Below, piece by piece: positions 1,846 through 63,855 of a DNA stretch of 64,000 bases. The stretch is taken from NCBI GenBank assembly GCA_034003985.1, contig JAVEXP010000001.1:155347-219346 (forward strand). Reading direction: 5' to 3'. This DNA comes from Patescibacteria group bacterium (lineage in GTDB: Bacteria; Patescibacteriota; Patescibacteriia; Buchananbacterales; UBA6539). A model generated the notes under the pieces. The model was not told where the DNA came from. It was given only the letters and a program-made list of their open reading frames with translations, and made no database searches. Numbering within the stretch: the stretch's first letter is position 1; every line of letters begins with the position of its first letter. Made by a program: the position numbers and the translations under genes.

Positions 1846-2751
1846 ATGAAAGCCAAAGGATGCAGATTGATCGTCCCGGACGGTTCCTTAATGGACACCG
1901 TTCATCAGTTGTTGGCCGAAGCGGATTGCCCGGTTAGTTATCCCAGCAGCCGGGCTTATCGCGGAATCATTGCCAATCACCGGCTTTTCCCGCCGCCTTT
2001 TCATCTGGTTCACCGGATGCGGCCGTGGGATTCACCGTTGGTGGTAGCCGCGCAACGAGCGGAATTGGCGTTTACCGGCCAAGATTTGATTATCGAAGCC
2101 GGTTGCCAGGATCAGGTGGTGGTCCTGGACAAGTATCCGCTTTCGCGGGGTGGCGTTGGTTTTACCAAGTTGGTGTTGGCAGTGACAAGCGATTCTTTGA
2201 TCAAATCGGTGACAGATCTTGGTCCACAACACCAGGTGGCTACCGAATACCCCAACTACGCGCGGCAGTGGCTGGCGGCCAAGGGTGTTAATCCTCGGAT
2301 TGTCTGCTGCCACGGTTCGTTGGAAGCTTTTGCCGACTTCGCCGACGCGATTTTTGAGAATACCGAAACCGGGACTTCGTTGAAAGTCGGCGGGTGGCGG
2401 ATCATTGAAGATCTACCCAAGTCGCAGACTTGCTTGATTACTTATTCGCAAGCCTTGGAAGATGAAGTTCAGAATGCCATCATCCAGGAATTTCGGATAT
2501 TGCTGAATGCGGTCATGGCGGCGCGTGGCCGAGTGATGATCAAGTGCAATGTCAGACCCGAGAACTGCACCAGCATCGCGGCGCTGTTGCCTTCGGCCGG
2601 CAGGCCAACAATGTCACCGTTGTTCGGTAATGACGGCTTTGCCTTGGAGGCAGTTGTGATGCAGTCGGATGTCGAAAGCCTGCTGCCGGCGCTGAAAAAA
2701 GCCGGTGCGACGGCGATTGTAGTCCATAATATCGACAAATTCTTGCCCTAA
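1846..2751 (+). CDS. hisG: ATP phosphoribosyltransferase, long form, with the C-terminal regulatory domain (HisG).
   Basis: ADAIFENTETGTSLKVGGWRIIED...TCLI matches the HisG catalytic motif ADAIxDLVSTGxTLxxNGL. The C-terminal ALLPSAGRPTMSPL...KKAGATAIVV matches the HisG regulatory domain. RBS GAGGAG upstream. Confidence 0.85.
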   Translation: MKAKGCRLIVPDGSLMDTVHQLLAEADCPVSYPSSRAYRGIIANHRLFPPPFHLVHRMRPWDSPLVVAAQRAELAFTGQDLIIEAGCQDQVVVLDKYPLSRGGVGFTKLVLAVTSDSLIKSVTDLGPQHQVATEYPNYARQWLAAKGVNPRIVCCHGSLEAFADFADAIFENTETGTSLKVGGWRIIEDLPKSQTCLITYSQALEDEVQNAIIQEFRILLNAVMAARGRVMIKCNVRPENCTSIAALLPSAGRPTMSPLFGNDGFALEAVVMQSDVESLLPALKKAGATAIVVHNIDKFLP

Positions 2752-2794
2752 GCGGCCCAATTGGCCGAGTGGGCAGAAACGACTGTTGGACGAA

Positions 2795-2830
2795 GCGGAA
2801 ACCTACTTTACGGGTTTCCGTCTTTTTTTA
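2795..2830 (+). terminator. Intrinsic terminator: cggaaacc-tactttac-gggtttccg followed by T8.
   Basis: Stem-loop followed by tctttttttat. Confidence 0.6.
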
Positions 2831-2849
2831 TTCATGCTATAAAAAGATC

Positions 2850-3302
2850 ATGAATTTAAATGACAATTACCGTCAAAGTAACCGCATTACTTCAGTTAAA
2901 GTTGAGGTTGGCGACTTGGCAATCAAATTAACGAATGATTTGCTGGCTTGTGTTGAGACTAATCAGCGCCAAAATTTGGGAGAACAATTATTGGATGAGC
3001 TTTGTGACAGCGCCAAAATCGATATTGTCAAACTGAAAATATCAGACACCAGGCAATATCATAAACGGCGCGGCCGCCGGATTGTTTTCAAGCAATATGG
3101 CTATTATCGCGATAAATACATTTATATTCAAAACCGGACCCCGGCGCGCGGCCAGCTAGTGGCGCCGAAAACTTTTTTGGACACCCTGTTGCACGAATGG
3201 TTGCATCATTATGATACTTACGCCTTGGGACTTAATTCCATTCATACTAAGGGATTTTATGAGCGGTTGAAAGATCTTAGAAATCGTTTGAGGGTTACCT
3301 GA
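2850..3302 (+). CDS. Hypothetical protein with an HExxH motif (LLHEWLHHYD), possibly a zinc-dependent hydrolase.
   Basis: The track ORF 2769-3302 overlaps the upstream terminator, so I chose the internal ATG at 2850. AT-rich host-like composition. Confidence 0.45.
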   Translation: MNLNDNYRQSNRITSVKVEVGDLAIKLTNDLLACVETNQRQNLGEQLLDELCDSAKIDIVKLKISDTRQYHKRRGRRIVFKQYGYYRDKYIYIQNRTPARGQLVAPKTFLDTLLHEWLHHYDTYALGLNSIHTKGFYERLKDLRNRLRVT

Positions 3303-38138: not shown

Positions 38139-39371
38139 TCAGAAGTAGAGAGTGAAGCCGGCTGAAAATACATCGACTTCAGTCTCATACCGTCCTGGAG
38201 ACAGGTTGTTGAACGATTGTCCAATTTCCTGTTTGACCCAAGCATGGAGGTATGCTAGGTCAAATGACCAGTTATCCTGATGGTAACCCAGGCCTAGTCC
38301 GACGCAGAATCCCTGGCCGTCAGGGATCACCGGATTGGTGGTGTCGTTGGGTACGGCTGGGCCGAGCCAGCCAACCCCCATCCGACTAGTCAAATGCTCG
38401 TTGAGTTGGCGCTCTATCCCCAGATGAGCGCTGAAAGATTTGTCCCAGTCCAGGCGCTGACGGATGGTTGGCAGCTTTCCGAAATCGAAGTCGATTCGGT
38501 CAGTCTGGCTATAGTCAAACCAGTTGACATCGAAAGCCACCAAATATTCGTTGTTGGGCTGCCAGGCAAATCCCAAACCCAATCGTGCCGGAAAGGTGAC
38601 ATCGGCGTCGAAGCCGTCGCGCCCCAGATTCAGTCCTGCCAACGAGATGTCGGTGTGACCTTTGAGGGCAATTTTCATCCGTGAGGAATAGCTCAGGGCC
38701 AATGCCAGGCGTTCATCGGGTTGCCAACGAATACCCAGACGATAACCCCAACCAAATCCGTCGCCTTCAGTCACTAAATCGGTGAGATCCAGTCTGACGC
38801 CGCCAATCTGGTGCAGGGGTGTGTGGTAGAGCAATTGGCCATAGCCAAGGTCTAATCCCACCCCGATACTCAGAGTGTCGGTGAGTTCATAGCTGAATCC
38901 ACCGGTGAGGTTGACTACGGCCAGCAGACTTTGGCGGTAGTTAAGACCCGGGTAGCGGTTGTTCGGGTATTTGACGCCCAAGCCATAGGGAGCGTATATT
39001 CCCGCTCCCAGTACCAGCCTGTCGGACAGGCGGGTGGCACCGGCTACTAGCGGCATAGTGAATAGCTGATCTTCCGACTGTTCTTCGAATCCGCCCCAGC
39101 TATCCGGCAGACGGTATTCAAAGTCGGGTGAAATGAAGTCGCCCGAAATTTGCAGGAAAGAGCCATCAACCTGGCTTAATCCCGCAATGTTGTGGTACAG
39201 TGCCGAGCCGTCGGAAGCTACGGCATTGTGGGCACCAGACATGCCCAGAGCTCTGGGGGTAAGGCTGGCGCCGGGACGGATAACACCACCACCAAACGCC
39301 GTCTGACCACAAAGTACTACCACCGCTAAGCAAGCCGCCCACTTAATATTCATCAGGTTCCTCCTTATCAT
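38139..39371 (-). CDS. FadL/OmpP1/TodX-family outer-membrane beta-barrel, a hydrophobic-compound transport protein. GC-rich.
   Basis: Signal peptide. N-terminal hatch motif ...ASDGSALYHNIAGL matches the FadL NPA(G)L region. Alternating amphipathic strands. The C-terminus ends ...GFTLYF (terminal Phe). About 56% GC. Confidence 0.7.
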   Translation of the reverse strand: MIRRNLMNIKWAACLAVVVLCGQTAFGGGVIRPGASLTPRALGMSGAHNAVASDGSALYHNIAGLSQVDGSFLQISGDFISPDFEYRLPDSWGGFEEQSEDQLFTMPLVAGATRLSDRLVLGAGIYAPYGLGVKYPNNRYPGLNYRQSLLAVVNLTGGFSYELTDTLSIGVGLDLGYGQLLYHTPLHQIGGVRLDLTDLVTEGDGFGWGYRLGIRWQPDERLALALSYSSRMKIALKGHTDISLAGLNLGRDGFDADVTFPARLGLGFAWQPNNEYLVAFDVNWFDYSQTDRIDFDFGKLPTIRQRLDWDKSFSAHLGIERQLNEHLTSRMGVGWLGPAVPNDTTNPVIPDGQGFCVGLGLGYHQDNWSFDLAYLHAWVKQEIGQSFNNLSPGRYETEVDVFSAGFTLYF

Positions 39372-39552
39372 CTTGTGTGCTTAACACGGGTTTCTGTTTT
39401 TACGGCTTTTTAAATTACCACATTTAAGTAAAAAAGTCAATATTGTATATTTTATAATTGACTTTTTTGTTGTATTATGATATTAATAAGAGTTGTCCTT
39501 TTAATTGGGTATAAGTGAATCCAACCGTGCTAAACACGAAAGGGTTAGGGCT

Positions 39553-40530
39553 ATGAGTATGTCAACGATTTTGGCAGTACCTACGGTCGAGGTGGCAGTT
39601 GACCCGGAGATTCCGGATGTCACAATCACAATGGTCGAGCAGTGTCGGCCGATCTCCACCTACACCTACGAGAGGTTGCGTTGGCTCTATGTGCTGACAT
39701 TTCCTCTCTCGGTTGCCCTAACCTTGTGGGTTATGGGCAAGAAGTTTTTGTGTTTGGCATTGGGTCGTCCAATGCCAAGAATCAACACCATCTTTTTTGA
39801 TGGTTTGGGGGAGGAGTGCCGCCAGATCAAGATGGGCGAGGCCTCGTGGAAAGCCCTGCATGTCATCTATAACCATGTTTTTAAGTGGGGATGGCGGGTC
39901 GACACTTTCGTTGACAATTATTGGATCGGCATGGTCAATGCACAAGCGGTGCGTAACCGCTTCAAGTTGGTCAAGCAGGAGATCCGGCGGGCCATCATGT
40001 CGGTCTACGACGGAGCGGAAGTAAGAATTATGTCCCTGGCCTGCGGTTCGGCCCAAGCTATCATTGAAGTGATGGCCGAAATGAAACAGAAAGGGATCGT
40101 GGTTCGGGCAATGCTGGTCGACAAGGACCAGGACGCGCTTGACTATGCGATGCAACTTGCCAATGAGCATGGTTTGCAAGATCGTGTCAGCGTCGTTTGC
40201 GATACCGTCTCAAATGTCGAGTTCTTGGCAGCTGACTTTCGGCCTCAGATCATTGAGATGCTGGGGCTGCTGGACTACCTGCATCAGCTCAAAGCCATTG
40301 ATCTGGCTGCCAAGATCTATCGGTCGCTGCCCGACAAAGGCTGGTTTCTCACCTGTAACATTGCCCATAACTTCGAGATGTGGTTCCTGCGGTGGGTAAT
40401 TAACTGGCCGATGATCTATCGGACGCCTCGGCAGTTGGCGGAAGTGGTGCTCAAAGCCGGCTTTGCCGATTGTCGGCTGATTTACGAGCCCCATCGAGTC
40501 CACGGATTGGTAGTCACCCAGAAGGTGTAA
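39553..40530 (+). CDS. Membrane-associated class I SAM-dependent methyltransferase-like protein. GC-rich.
   Basis: Motif I LACGSAQ, acidic post-I LVDKD, motif II VVCDTV, and one predicted TM helix near the N-terminus. Start taken at the ATG at 39553 preceded by AAAGGG. Confidence 0.5.
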   Translation: MSMSTILAVPTVEVAVDPEIPDVTITMVEQCRPISTYTYERLRWLYVLTFPLSVALTLWVMGKKFLCLALGRPMPRINTIFFDGLGEECRQIKMGEASWKALHVIYNHVFKWGWRVDTFVDNYWIGMVNAQAVRNRFKLVKQEIRRAIMSVYDGAEVRIMSLACGSAQAIIEVMAEMKQKGIVVRAMLVDKDQDALDYAMQLANEHGLQDRVSVVCDTVSNVEFLAADFRPQIIEMLGLLDYLHQLKAIDLAAKIYRSLPDKGWFLTCNIAHNFEMWFLRWVINWPMIYRTPRQLAEVVLKAGFADCRLIYEPHRVHGLVVTQKV

Positions 40531-60182: not shown

Positions 60183-61520
60183 ATGAAAAAAATATTATAC
60201 CTGATTTTATTTTCTAGCTTGTTGGCCTTGCCCAATTACGCGCGGGCCGATTATTATTTTAATCCTCATTTTGTTATTACTGACGAAGAGATGACGGATT
60301 ATTTGTCCTTGTCATTGGCGCAAATCCAGCGGTTTTTGGAAGACAAAGGAAGTTATTTGGCCGAGTGGTCGGCGCCGGATTACAATGGCGTTACCAGGCC
60401 GGCGGCCGAAATCATTTGGCAGGCCGCCCAGGAGAGCCAAATTAGCCCCAAAGTACTCTTGACGACTTTGCAAAAAGAGCAAAGTTTAATCGGTGATAAA
60501 TCTCCCAGCCAAAATCAATTGGATAAAGCCATGGGCTACCGTTGCCCTGATGGCGGCTCTTGCAATGTTAAGTCTTTGGGATTTGGCAAGCAGGTTGACG
60601 GCGCGGCTTGGCAATTTCGTCAGTATTATAATACGCCAAATACCTGGACTTATCGGATTGGTGAAACCTATATCATCGACGGTTATTGGACGATGCCGGT
60701 TAATCAGGCAACGGCCAGTTTGTATAATTATACTCCTCATTATTCGGGCAATAAAAGATTTTGGGAATTGTGGCAAAAGTATTGGGGTAAAAATTATCCC
60801 GATGGGACATTGCTTAAAGCTGATGACAATCCTGGAGTTTGGTTGATTCAATACGGCACCAGAAGATTAATTAAATCTTGGGGAGTTTTGCTGTCACGAT
60901 TTGACCCTCGTAAAATTATCACCGTCAATAAGACTGATTTGGAAAAGTATGCGGTCGGTCCTGATATCAAGTTTCATAATTATTCATTATTGCGAGTTGA
61001 TAAAAATGATATCTATCTGTTGGTTAATGATGAGTTGCGCCAGATTGTGTCTTTGGATATTTTTAGGAATATCGGTTTTAATCCCGAGGAAATTGAAGAT
61101 GTTGCTTCGGCTGATTTAGCTGGTTATCAGTATGGCGCGGATATTACGGCTCAAACAGCTTATCCAACCGGAGCCTTATTGCAAGATCAAAATACTGGCG
61201 GCGTTTATTTTGTGGAAAACGGTGTCAAATATCCGATCTATTCCAAGGAAATTATGGCTGCTAATTTTCCTGATCGGGTATTGACTGCTGTTGCTCCAGA
61301 GGTGTTAGAAGGCTACCAAACTGGCGTGCCAGTAAAATTCAAGGATGGCGAATTAGTGATGGCCGATGGTGATTCAAAAGTTTTCGTAATTTCCGGCGGT
61401 TACCGTCGCTGGATTAAAACCCAGGCCGGATTTGAAAAATTAGGCTATAAGTGGGATAATATAATTGTGACTTCGGCCAAAGCAATAGCCATTCATTCCT
61501 TGGGCGAAGATATTGACTAA
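60183..61520 (+). CDS. Secreted hypothetical protein with four tandem repeats of about 55 aa.
   Basis: Signal peptide. Repeats centred on VWLIQYGTRRLIKS, IYLLVNDELRQIVS, VYFVENGVKYPIYS and VFVISGGYRRWIKT. Confidence 0.45.
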   Translation: MKKILYLILFSSLLALPNYARADYYFNPHFVITDEEMTDYLSLSLAQIQRFLEDKGSYLAEWSAPDYNGVTRPAAEIIWQAAQESQISPKVLLTTLQKEQSLIGDKSPSQNQLDKAMGYRCPDGGSCNVKSLGFGKQVDGAAWQFRQYYNTPNTWTYRIGETYIIDGYWTMPVNQATASLYNYTPHYSGNKRFWELWQKYWGKNYPDGTLLKADDNPGVWLIQYGTRRLIKSWGVLLSRFDPRKIITVNKTDLEKYAVGPDIKFHNYSLLRVDKNDIYLLVNDELRQIVSLDIFRNIGFNPEEIEDVASADLAGYQYGADITAQTAYPTGALLQDQNTGGVYFVENGVKYPIYSKEIMAANFPDRVLTAVAPEVLEGYQTGVPVKFKDGELVMADGDSKVFVISGGYRRWIKTQAGFEKLGYKWDNIIVTSAKAIAIHSLGEDID

Positions 61521-62356: not shown

Positions 62357-62650
62357 TCACCCTTGAGGGGGTGATTTTTTGTTGGAAATAGAATTTTCAA
62401 TCAGTTTGAAAAAATATTTCCATTTTTCGCCGGTTTGGCACAGTTCTTTGGTGTCATTTATTGCCTTTTGAATAATGGCGGGAGAGTTTTTTTTGCATAC
62501 TAAAAAGACGGAGTTTCTTTTAGAACCCGGAACGGCCAGTTCATCAATGATTTTTAAAGCCAAATCCTGCCAGGGGTAAGCCGGCGGTTTAATGATTTTT
62601 TTGGCATTAATAATGTCGCTGAATTTTTGAGGACCTTGGTCAGCTGGCAT
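62357..62650 (-). CDS. Hypothetical protein (97 aa).
   Basis: ORF only. AT-rich composition. Confidence 0.35.
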   Translation of the reverse strand: MPADQGPQKFSDIINAKKIIKPPAYPWQDLALKIIDELAVPGSKRNSVFLVCKKNSPAIIQKAINDTKELCQTGEKWKYFFKLIENSISNKKSPPQG

Positions 62651-62681
62651 AGTATTGATATTATACCAAATTTAATCAGAT

Positions 62682-62715
62682 TAAAAAAAATCGGCCGAAA
62701 GCGAACTTCCGGCCT
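62682..62715 (-). terminator. Intrinsic terminator of the small-membrane-protein operon: ggccggaagttcgctttcggccg followed by T8 on the minus strand.
   Basis: On the plus strand it reads aaaaaaaatcggccgaaagcgaacttccggcc. Confidence 0.55.
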
Positions 62716-62746
62716 AAGATTGCGGGATAGTATAGTGGGTCCGAGA

Positions 62747-62941
62747 TTAGTTCTCGGGATCTATCTCGATTATGGCTTGAATCAAGAGTGGCAATCCCCA
62801 AAACAGGAGGATTAGCCTTTCTTTCAGGGTCAGGCCGGCACTCATGGCCAGAGAGATATTGGCGCCGAAGTAAACCACTGCTGCAAAACCTACAACAATG
62901 GCTACCATGATCAGTAACGAGTAGACGACTATCATTGTCAT
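62747..62941 (-). CDS. Tiny membrane protein (64 aa, 2 TM), gene 4 of a GC-rich four-gene operon.
   Basis: AAGGAGG RBS. A 4-nt ATGA overlap with the upstream gene. Confidence 0.5.
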   Translation of the reverse strand: MTMIVVYSLLIMVAIVVGFAAVVYFGANISLAMSAGLTLKERLILLFWGLPLLIQAIIEIDPEN

Positions 62942-63174
62942 GGTTTTTGGTCCTCCTTTTGTTCGTTCGGATCAGGTTTTGCTGGGGTTAGAATCAAAGC
63001 CGCCAATTCAATCAGCACCAGGCTGATTTGGGAGAAAGGCAGCGAAACAATGTCGACCAACTGATCTATTGCCGACTTTCGTCGACAATGATTTCGCCGA
63101 CTTTCGAGGTGGATTCCCACCCCAATCCAGACCAGCCCGGCGAGCGCCAAGGCAGCTAACTTTGCTTCGTTCAT
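62938..63174 (-). CDS. Tiny membrane protein (78 aa, 2 TM), gene 3. Weak resemblance to MnhF/MrpF-like subunits.
   Basis: AAGGAG RBS. A 3-nt gap to the upstream gene. Confidence 0.5.
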   Translation of the reverse strand: MNEAKLAALALAGLVWIGVGIHLESRRNHCRRKSAIDQLVDIVSLPFSQISLVLIELAALILTPAKPDPNEQKEDQKP

Positions 63175-63177
63175 CGG

Positions 63178-63369
63178 TTACTCCTTGGGTTCAGTTTTGC
63201 TGAGCAGAATGGCCAGATACAACAGCAGGTAGTTAACCGGCTCCTCGTGAATTTGCCTCAGGTAAGCCCGCCAGCCGGTTTGACTGCCAAAGTGGCCGGT
63301 TAAGACAACGCCAGTTGCCAGATATAACCCGTAGATTATCCCGGCGCCAATCAGAATGTCAGTAGCCAT
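63178..63369 (-). CDS. Tiny membrane protein (63 aa, 2 TM), gene 2.
   Basis: AAGGAG RBS. Confidence 0.5.
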   Translation of the reverse strand: MATDILIGAGIIYGLYLATGVVLTGHFGSQTGWRAYLRQIHEEPVNYLLLYLAILLSKTEPKE

Positions 63370-63383
63370 GGTGGTCTTCTCCT

Positions 63384-63503
63384 TTAGGCGATATCGCCTT
63401 CACAAGGGATGCCGATGAACCATCGAAACAGCCGATACACTGAGACTGAGATTACAAATCCCAGTACGAGCGTTATTATCACGCCAGAAAGCAGTCGTTG
63501 CAT
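63384..63503 (-). CDS. Tiny membrane protein (39 aa, 1 TM), gene 1. Not in the track.
   Basis: I read the ORF manually: MQRLLSGVIITLVLGFVISVSVYRLFRWFIGIPCEGDIA. AAGGAGGGG RBS. Confidence 0.4.
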   Translation of the reverse strand: MQRLLSGVIITLVLGFVISVSVYRLFRWFIGIPCEGDIA

Positions 63504-63717
63504 GGGTTACCCCTCCTTGTCAAGTTGTTAACATTCCCGTAATTAATTAATTTTAATGGCAAGTTGCTATTTAAGTCAAGTTATCCCCAAAACCGATAGG
63601 TTTGACAGAAATATTAATCGGTTATATAATTAATTCTTCCCAATGGAATATTCCCCTAGCTTTTGGCAGGGGTTTTCGTTTTTTCTTAAAACTAACATAA
63701 TAAAATAAAAACCAACT

Positions 63718-63855
63718 ATGCCTAAAGTTTTTGATTCCCCAATCGAAGAATTAAAGTTTTATTTAACCATGCAGATTCAGGCTTATCATGAAGAGGATTT
63801 CAAACTTTACGACAGGTTGGAAAGCAAAATTTTGGAAATTGAAAAAAAATTATGA
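63718..63855 (+). CDS. Small hypothetical protein (45 aa) upstream of def.
   Basis: I read the ORF manually. No strong SD. Confidence 0.25.
   Translation: MPKVFDSPIEELKFYLTMQIQAYHEEDFKLYDRLESKILEIEKKL

Follow-up and report, generated by a model that had tools for sequence, protein, structure and literature searches.

A 64,000-nucleotide (nt) stretch of the genome of a Patescibacteria group bacterium (contig JAVEXP010000001.1; the whole stretch is referred to below as the window), whose closest named relatives are 'Ca. Buchananbacteria', carries on its minus strand an operon of four very small genes, ORF1 to ORF4 (ORF, open reading frame), which to judge from the sequence is very probably a real, co-expressed operon of orphan membrane proteins. 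The operon occupies a slot between p45-def-fmt, transcribed from the plus strand, and p97, on the minus strand. Divergent promoters separate p45-def-fmt from ORF1, an intrinsic terminator follows ORF4, and beyond p97 lie the genes for Memo, a 445-amino-acid (aa) secreted protein and a radical SAM enzyme, all of which are on the plus strand and thus convergent with p97 (Table 1). The def and fmt genes are located past the end of the window.

An earlier note on this DNA, made from the letters only, had listed four consecutive tiny minus-strand ORFs of 39, 63, 78 and 64 aa and proposed that all of them encode transmembrane (TM) peptides, and both statements hold. The maximal Kyte-Doolittle hydropathy in a 19-residue window is 1.9-2.8 for the four peptides, which together comprise six certain TM helices and possibly a seventh. 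By hydropathy ORF2 contains one clear helix only (residues 5-25), followed by a polar loop and a 13-residue hydrophobic C-terminal stretch. In the ORF3 hairpin the first helix is rich in Ala and Gly, the loop (RRNHCRRK) is strongly basic, the second helix has a conserved glutamate, Glu56, in its interior, and the tail is polar; an AlphaFold2 model places helices at residues 3-24, 33-43 and 47-62 with a mean confidence (pLDDT) of 59. The corresponding model of ORF4 is a hairpin with helices at residues 2-32 and 39-58 (pLDDT 76). An exact look-up found ORF2-ORF4 deposited as hypothetical proteins of a Patescibacteria metagenome-assembled genome (MDX9892993-5, ORF2 being GenBank MDX9892995.1), and ORF1 was absent from the public protein collection. 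The 39-aa ORF1, which the earlier note had found by hand, nevertheless appears to be real, having been missed by gene callers or merged into a spurious longer gene. In the relatives the callers predict a 118-aa 'ORF2' that is an upstream extension through the Shine-Dalgarno (SD) region; ORF1 is the better reading because a TGA closes this extension in the window.

The sequence AAGGAG or AAGGAGG is present 6-10 nt before the ATG of each of the four ORFs, as had been claimed. Only nine AAGGAG-N4-11-ATG sites occur in the entire window, four of them inside this 760-nt block, and the density of SD signals in the block is far above chance. In 41 of 57 other genes the SD core is no longer than 3 nt, even if any start within the first 30 codons is allowed, and among the small ORFs of the window only these four combine a strong SD with a TM segment. 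The genes are closely packed. ORF2 and ORF3 share a frame, with a spacing of 3 nt and a TAA plus one codon between them, and the stop of ORF3 overlaps the start of ORF4 in an ATGA, both as reported earlier; the gap between ORF1 and ORF2, however, is 14 nt and not 3. A promoter-like site upstream of ORF1 stands back to back with the perfect TTGACA-17-TATAAT of the opposite strand, and the intrinsic terminator that had been predicted was located at the other end of the operon. A riboswitch was considered and rejected for this operon: the Rfam scan of the whole window returned no family, and the 5' untranslated region (UTR) of about 40 nt is too short.

Copies of the identical locus were present in a Logan contig (L001) and a JGI contig (L002), and two diverged relatives, L003 (NCBI GCA_030154545.1) and L004 (ENA), were used for comparison. 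The operon is 87.5% identical to L003 at the nucleotide level, and each of the four frames retains its start, its stop and its SD site; the only indels, of -3 and +3, compensate each other within ORF4. The terminator stem is also retained in L003, where a G-U pair is replaced by A-U and one change falls in the loop. The ratios of nonsynonymous to synonymous divergence (dN/dS; Nei-Gojobori method, window versus L003) are 0.36, 0.13, 0.22 and 0.46 for ORF1 to ORF4, compared with 0.07 for p97, 0.03 for Memo and 0 for p45. Substitutions in the operon are distributed over the first, second and third codon positions as 32/15/45 (chi-square p = 6e-4), those of ORF1 taken separately as 8/2/10, and ORF1 remains 39 aa long in both L003 and L004. 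The identity of the proteins to those of L003 is 94% for ORF2, 85% for ORF3 and 74% for ORF4, so the slot proteins (74-94%) are less conserved than the flank proteins (94-100%). The values of dS are 0.22-0.38 in the operon and 0.33-0.51 in the flanks, and the operon therefore co-diverged with its neighbours. Taken together, the sequence comparisons indicate that the four ORFs are real and separate genes and not fragments of one gene, and that their products are under purifying selection within a species-level lineage.

Table 1. Features of the four-gene operon and its surroundings, in window coordinates.
Feature	Position	Strand	Length	Description
ORF1	63503..63384	-	39 aa	one TM helix, about residues 4-23; Cys34 conserved; SD AAGGAGG at 63518-63512
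ORF2	63369..63178	-	63 aa	SD AAGGAG at 63384-63379
ORF3	63174..62938	-	78 aa	two-TM hairpin; SD AAGGAG at 63186-63181
ORF4	62941..62747	-	64 aa	two-TM hairpin, acidic C-terminus; SD AAGGAGG at 62958-62952
Operon promoter-like site	63550..63579	-		TTGACT-18-TAAAAT; 10 of 12 matches; identical in L003 and L004
Intrinsic terminator	62683..62714	-		GGCCGGAAG-TTCG-CTTTCGGCC, then GATTTTTTTT; 9-bp GC-rich hairpin with six G-C pairs, then T8
p97	62357..62650	-	97 aa	conserved protein; one edge of the slot; own extended -10 promoter
p97 extended -10 element	62651-62680	-		TGGTATAAT; conserved in L003
p45-def-fmt promoter	63602-63630	+		perfect TTGACA-17-TATAAT; divergent from the operon
p45	63718-63855	+	45 aa	non-membrane ORF, first gene of p45-def-fmt; other edge of the slot
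Divergent-promoter region	63504-63717			
Hairpin in the p45-def-fmt 5' UTR	about 63650-63690			CCCCT...AGGGG, then T-run
Secreted protein	60183-61520	+	445 aa	N-terminal signal peptide
GC-rich two-gene island	38139-40530			FadL/TodX-type protein and methyltransferase

No family could be assigned to any of the four peptides, in keeping with the caution of the earlier note: Pfam, NCBIfam, PHROGs, PADLOC and HMMER searches were all silent. With Pfam and NCBIfam at E <= 10 the individual peptides returned only noise (best E = 0.019), and a concatenate of the four gave nothing above noise. A DUF202 match of the concatenate (17.7 bits against a cut-off of 23.4) spans the artificial ORF3/ORF4 junction and was rejected. 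A phmmer/HMMER search of ORF3 against 1.84 billion cluster representatives recovered ORF3 itself and two artefacts, an ankyrin-repeat protein and a He_PIG Ig-repeat protein, in which weak repeat matches are summed and which are not homologues. When 5.8e9 proteins were searched with a profile of ORF4, the versions of the window and of L003 were the only matches. JGI metagenome contigs and IMG/VR contained no match to ORF2, IMG/VR also none to ORF3 or ORF4, and the DNA of the operon has no relative among phage or plasmid records.

Homologues were also sought closer to home, with phmmer and jackhmmer over 9,800 six-frame ORFs of related loci. Starting from each ORF, jackhmmer reached only the window, L003 and L004, and in no related locus other than the copies of the window's own lineage was a homologue of ORF1-ORF4 detected; the four-gene block, about whose conservation elsewhere the earlier note had asked, is conserved in L003. 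Some weak links were observed. In pairwise phmmer comparisons ORF2 matched an 84-aa protein of L010/L020 (E = 0.002) and ORF4 matched proteins of L022/L070 (E = 0.009), in a database of about 130 sequences with about 7% decoy hits. An hhalign comparison of ORF4 with hand-picked last-gene peptides of other slots gave a probability of 74%, and with a hidden Markov model built without the window ORF4 was the first non-member (E = 0.0018), although the seed was chosen by eye and the test is partly circular. The pattern K-x-L-x-L-x-x-x-G-L-P-x-L in the second helix of ORF4 likewise resembles the last-position hairpins of other slots, a weak likeness, again with the seed picked by eye. Two further candidates for homology among slot peptides were discarded: Smith-Waterman z-scores, which peak at 4.7 and reach at most 3.85 with the ORFs of the window, are no proof of homology, as shuffling destroys the TM clustering, and the grouping of 23 peptides by single linkage of phmmer matches is due to their biased TM composition. 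Within the reach of these searches, the four proteins are without a detectable homologue beyond their own species-level lineage.

The position of the operon is far more widespread than its genes. A Memo search of GTDB genomes yielded 12 loci, four of them from named 'Ca. Buchananbacteria' and most titled only Patescibacteria group bacterium, and a search of JGI metagenomes with a p97 alignment yielded 80. In this set of about 90 loci, part of which is redundant, making the effective numbers in the slot counts smaller, p97 adjoins Memo and def-fmt almost everywhere, in one of two gene orders: divergent, as in the window, or colinear, Memo-p97-def-fmt. In the divergent order the distance from (p45-)def to p97 ranges from about 130 to 1,870 nt, and the slot is either empty or contains one to five other small membrane-protein genes with strong SD sequences on the p97 strand. 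Slot ORFs may be defined by position: they are on the p97 strand within the interval bounded by p97 and (p45-)def-fmt, encode 40-120 aa with one or more TM helices, and have a strong SD. The operon of the window fits this definition.

Comparable slot operons were identified in L005/L025, L006, L008/L026, L009/L063, L010/L020, L018, L019, L022, L027, L033, L052, L064, L070, L072 and L083. The slot of L005/L025 contains four ORFs (48-53, 49-51, 75 and 55 aa) spaced 2-4 nt apart, that of L022 three small ORFs, those of L006, L010/L020, L027, L033 and L083 two each, and those of L008, L009, L018 and L052 one each. In L064/L070 five ORFs are present, including one for a 97-aa weak XRE-like protein (L064 2161-2454; L070 857-1150), and L072 encodes a 63-aa TM protein together with a 197-aa protein with two HTH_17 (excisionase-type) domains (2701-3294). 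The DNA-binding proteins in the slots of L072, L064 and L070 hint at mobile-element or toxin-antitoxin-like content. None of the slot ORFs of the other loci belongs to a Pfam family. Of the 55 gaps with p97, 8 carry an array of at least two small ORFs with SD and TM segment; the 57 other gaps of 250 nt or more in these loci carry none. A literature search for slot-like loci or small membrane proteins in Patescibacteria or Buchananbacteria retrieved nothing specific, and the new element is a fixed slot with recurrent, fast-turning-over operons of micro-proteins, of which no description was found.

The turnover may proceed by rapid divergence or by replacement. Between L064 and L070 the proteins of the colinear slot operons are only 33-51% identical, whereas p97, Memo and def are 91-94% identical, so that slot genes diverge several-fold faster than their flanks. 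At this rate orthologues could no longer be recognised in the next species, where Memo is about 70% identical, and it is therefore possible that the operon of L005, also of four genes, is orthologous to that in the window but strongly diverged. The next-closest species, with Memo 68-71% identical, have different slot contents or none. For ORF2, however, dN is 0.029 against 0.015 for Memo, about twice as fast, although this is based on just four nonsynonymous changes; at that rate ORF2 should remain detectable, yet it was not detected, which hints at replacement. The third-codon-position GC content (GC3) of slot operons is about 0.5-0.58 in most measured loci, while that of the hosts varies from 0.35 to 0.70, L033 and L063 (about 0.35) being the exceptions. 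This pattern is compatible either with weak adaptation of codon usage or with a common pool from which the genes are exchanged.

These observations are best explained if the operon encodes a fast-evolving, co-translated small membrane complex or modulator, a reading to which we assign a probability of roughly 55% and in which the function is inferred. One promoter-like site and one terminator would define a single transcription unit of four cistrons, which are close to each other, have strong, optimally spaced SD sequences and are probably translationally coupled. The four peptides would be co-produced and enter the cytoplasmic membrane, there to assemble, possibly, into a small hetero-oligomeric bundle of six to seven helices. 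According to the positive-inside rule, the basic loops of the ORF3 and ORF4 hairpins (RRNHCRRK and KER) would be cytoplasmic and the termini would face outward, and ORF3 would contribute a buried glutamate. The peptides contain no enzymatic or catalytic domain, and the bundle would therefore exert its effect through association, as a modulator of some larger membrane machine, or else as a small pore or envelope determinant. The fast turnover at the species level points to a dispensable, lineage-specific role at the envelope, in host contact or at the phage interface, and not to core bioenergetics or ion transport.

Several points weigh against this reading. The assembly of the four peptides into one complex is deduced from gene packing alone and is a tentative proposal with somewhat less than even odds. 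The functional class (modulator, pore or envelope determinant) is also inferred: PHROGs gave no match below E = 0.35, PADLOC-DB gave none at E <= 1 for the four peptides, p97 or p45, and a Foldseek search of the PDB with the ORF4 model returned only generic helical hairpins at E >= 1, so that all three were silent on function, and any specific biological role is improbable at best. The status of the operon as a set of genes is deduced from sequence. The evidence for purifying selection comes from a single divergent relative and a second, partial one, and the nonsynonymous changes number 4-19 per gene. Searches with the concatenate against 5.8e9 proteins and with the ORF2 profile did not recover even known self-matches and were not counted; the negative result for ORF2 is therefore based on the local jackhmmer search and the contig scans. 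Finally, single small ORFs with SD and TM segment, as opposed to arrays, also occur in 10 of the 57 other gaps.

The strongest alternative, clearly less probable than the preferred reading, is that the block is of horizontal origin and was inserted between def and p97; the donor would have been richer in GC, with strong SD usage, and the block possibly part of a pool of cassettes that Patescibacteria exchange. The earlier note had described the block as a candidate acquired module of foreign composition with 55% GC. The GC content proved lower, 0.496 over 62682-63540 and 0.498 over the ORFs, with a peak of 0.537 in a 300-nt window. The mean GC3 of the operon, 0.56, is nevertheless about two standard deviations above the genome mean (0.436 +/- 0.063 for 42 long ORFs of the window; 0.43 +/- 0.06 in a second count of 44 ORFs) and close to that of three other outlier genes of the window. 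The composition is thus atypical, though not unique, given that 4.9% of the 757-nt windows within the 64 kb are equally or more GC-rich. The SD strength, atypical for this genome, the different or missing slot contents of the next-closest species, and the excisionase-type and XRE-like proteins of some slots agree with acquisition, and the GC3 of slot operons, largely independent of the host, fits a shared pool. On the other hand, the dS of the operon matches that of the flanks, so that any acquisition must predate the split of the window and L003. Viral, plasmid, phage and metagenome searches and that of 1.84e9 proteins revealed no donor or relative. No mobile-element signature was recognised either: flanking repeats are at chance level only (an exact 11-mer at 62794 and 63583, with one copy inside ORF4), no integrase is encoded in the surrounding 14 kb, and the 64-kb window contains no tRNA gene. 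Comparable operons occupy the slot in relatives, and L064/L070 demonstrate that vertical inheritance with fast divergence of slot operons is possible. The evidence on the acquired-module claim is thus divided, and the foreign-insert interpretation is unproven.

A side observation on base composition concerns a second GC-rich region of the window, an island of two genes encoding a FadL/TodX-type outer-membrane transport protein (PF03349, E = 7e-44; GC 0.55, GC3 0.60), which has a signal peptide, and a methyltransferase (GC3 0.65). Bacteria of the Candidate Phyla Radiation (CPR) are thought to be without an outer membrane. An outer-membrane transport protein in a CPR contig suggests horizontal transfer or a chimeric assembly.

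It is considerably less likely that the operon is a membrane-damaging or pore-forming cassette (holin-like proteins, a small toxin with immunity protein, or a multi-peptide bacteriocin with immunity), in which some peptides would permeabilise the membrane and their partners neutralise them. In size, hairpin topology and polar tails the peptides would suit class II holins and small immunity proteins as generally known, conflict genes typically evolve fast and are patchily distributed, as these are, and regulators with helix-turn-helix domains are present in some slots. The ORF4 protein begins with M-T-M, a possible dual start; the second methionine is, however, deleted in L003. The tails are not basic, no double-glycine leader is present, no endolysin, ABC exporter or peptidase is encoded nearby, and the PHROGs and PADLOC collections contained no significant match.

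Still less probable is the idea that the ORFs are functionless or newly born, being transcribed and perhaps translated without a selected function. Orphan status with fast turnover, the GC3 near 0.5 irrespective of the host in most slots and dN/dS values of up to 0.46 speak for this idea. In contrast, all four ratios are below 1, the codon-position bias is significant, the terminator is conserved, and four optimally spaced strong SD sequences are found in a genome mostly without them. Moreover, intergenic DNA nearby has about 31% GC, against about 50% for the operon, a difference that speaks against a recent origin from the non-coding DNA of this locus.

The resemblance to small subunits of multi-subunit cation/proton antiporters (MrpE/F/G- or MnhF/G-like), or of another bioenergetic complex, which the earlier note had suggested, is effectively refuted. 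It consists only in a general look, namely several small hydrophobic proteins in a row and the membrane-embedded glutamate of ORF3. By hmmscan neither the four peptides nor the concatenate matched MrpE (PF01899), MrpF/PhaF (PF04066) or MrpG/PhaG (PF03334) at E <= 10, large NuoL/M/N-like subunits (MrpA, MrpD, or MrpB/C) are not among the neighbours, which are def-fmt, p97, Memo and the radical SAM enzyme, and the genes are absent from sister species, which is unexpected for a core ion-transport complex. The idea that the ORFs are pseudogene debris, frameshifted fragments of one larger membrane-protein gene, as the shared frame of ORF2 and ORF3 with a single TAA between them and the six to seven TM helices of the concatenate might suggest, is likewise refuted, by the very test that the earlier note had set, because starts, stops and individual SD sites are conserved in L003, the indels are multiples of three, each dN/dS is below 1, no longer protein matches ORF3 among the 1.84e9 representatives or covers the four frames, and the concatenate has no Pfam match above noise.

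In a more far-reaching reading, the def/p97 slot could be a dedicated hot spot at which translationally coupled operons for micro-membrane-proteins are continually replaced, or diverge beyond recognition, with a GC3 of about 0.5 decoupled from the host. The peptides of the window would then be one allele of a hypervariable envelope module, a hetero-oligomeric complex on which a property of the strain would depend, for instance the exclusion of phages or the recognition of host cells by an episymbiont. This proposal is speculative and unlikely; if true, CPR bacteria would possess a previously unreported type of locus for surface variation or immunity. If the preferred reading is right, the locus is a clean natural example of lineage-specific generation of membrane proteins in genome-reduced, uncultured CPR bacteria, with a fixed slot and strong expression signals, whose contents turn over while the divergence stays inside a single candidate phylum-level group. 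Protein families enriched in CPR lineages are mostly membrane-associated and of unknown function (PMC6744442), and orphan small membrane proteins are therefore to be expected in a CPR genome. Small membrane proteins are under-annotated, as illustrated by ORF1, which is missing from public protein sets, and a recurrent, defined slot provides a handle for comparative and heterologous-expression studies. The result itself is descriptive and concerns real, functionally opaque orphan genes.

The genes bordering the slot have features of their own. The p97 protein has no Pfam, NCBIfam, PHROGs or PADLOC match, and its invariant motifs include PPAYPWQ, KRNSVF, TKEL and YFFKL. It is nearly always a neighbour of Memo (AmmeMemoRadiSam protein B) and appears to represent a conserved, uncharacterised protein family of CPR bacteria with a link to the Memo/radical-SAM system. 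The extended -10 element of p97 lies 9 nt before the ATG, no SD is present, and the p97 mRNA is probably leaderless. The p45 protein, encoded directly upstream of def, is 100% identical in L003, with six synonymous changes in the gene, and is present only in the clade in which the slot is usually filled. The divergent-promoter region is 96.7% identical to that of L003, compared with 87.5% for the operon, and is also more strongly conserved than the synonymous sites of the neighbours (dS 0.2-0.5). The 5' UTR of p45-def-fmt contains a hairpin followed by a T-run, possibly an attenuator or leader element, for which Rfam gave no match. The 445-aa protein encoded between the AmmeMemoRadiSam radical SAM enzyme and Memo has no Pfam match. 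In colinear loci (e.g. L055-L057, L060, L077, L078, L091 and L093) the def-fmt gap is about 600-740 nt.

Among known systems the operon of the window has analogies only; as far as such likenesses go, the features tested for membership of a known family were not found. Integrons or mobile cassettes and anti-phage defence systems offer no counterpart, given the short chance-level repeats, the lack of an integrase in the surrounding 14 kb and the absence of a matching PADLOC-DB protein model. In its layout ORF3, a 78-aa hairpin with an Ala/Gly-rich helix 1, a basic loop and Glu56 in helix 2, resembles the c-subunit of F/V-type ATPases; unlike the latter, it is an orphan without an ATP-synt_C (PF00137) match at E <= 10, and no atp genes are found in its neighbourhood. 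Tandem, tightly packed genes for very small hydrophobic proteins, suggesting stoichiometric co-production, are shared with psbEFLJ and with the MrpE/F/G genes of Mrp/Mnh operons. These encode core subunits conserved across species, whereas the operon described here is confined to one species-level lineage, has no large-subunit genes nearby and shows no sequence or profile match to them.

Multi-peptide operons are also known for secreted or lytic peptides, for example psm-alpha of Staphylococcus aureus and aurABCD of aureocin A70, and class II holins may be compared as well. With the first two the operon shares consecutive mini-ORFs, each with its own SD, lineage specificity and fast evolution, and with holins the layout of a hairpin plus polar tail. 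The peptides of the window are longer, have full-length TM helices and not amphipathic ones, and lack an exporter, an endolysin and a leader motif. A test for holins found no PHROGs match below E = 0.35, no relatives in viral contigs or phage genomes and no lysin or phage genes in the neighbourhood. The remaining analogy is with small membrane proteins that act as modulators of the larger membrane machines to which they bind, such as KdpF, AcrZ, MgtS and CydX. Those are mostly encoded by single genes, often located by the gene of their partner, whereas here four are co-encoded with no obvious partner and no shared sequence; like them, however, the peptides of 39-78 aa have one or two TM helices and no enzymatic domain, and such proteins often go unannotated, as ORF1 has here.

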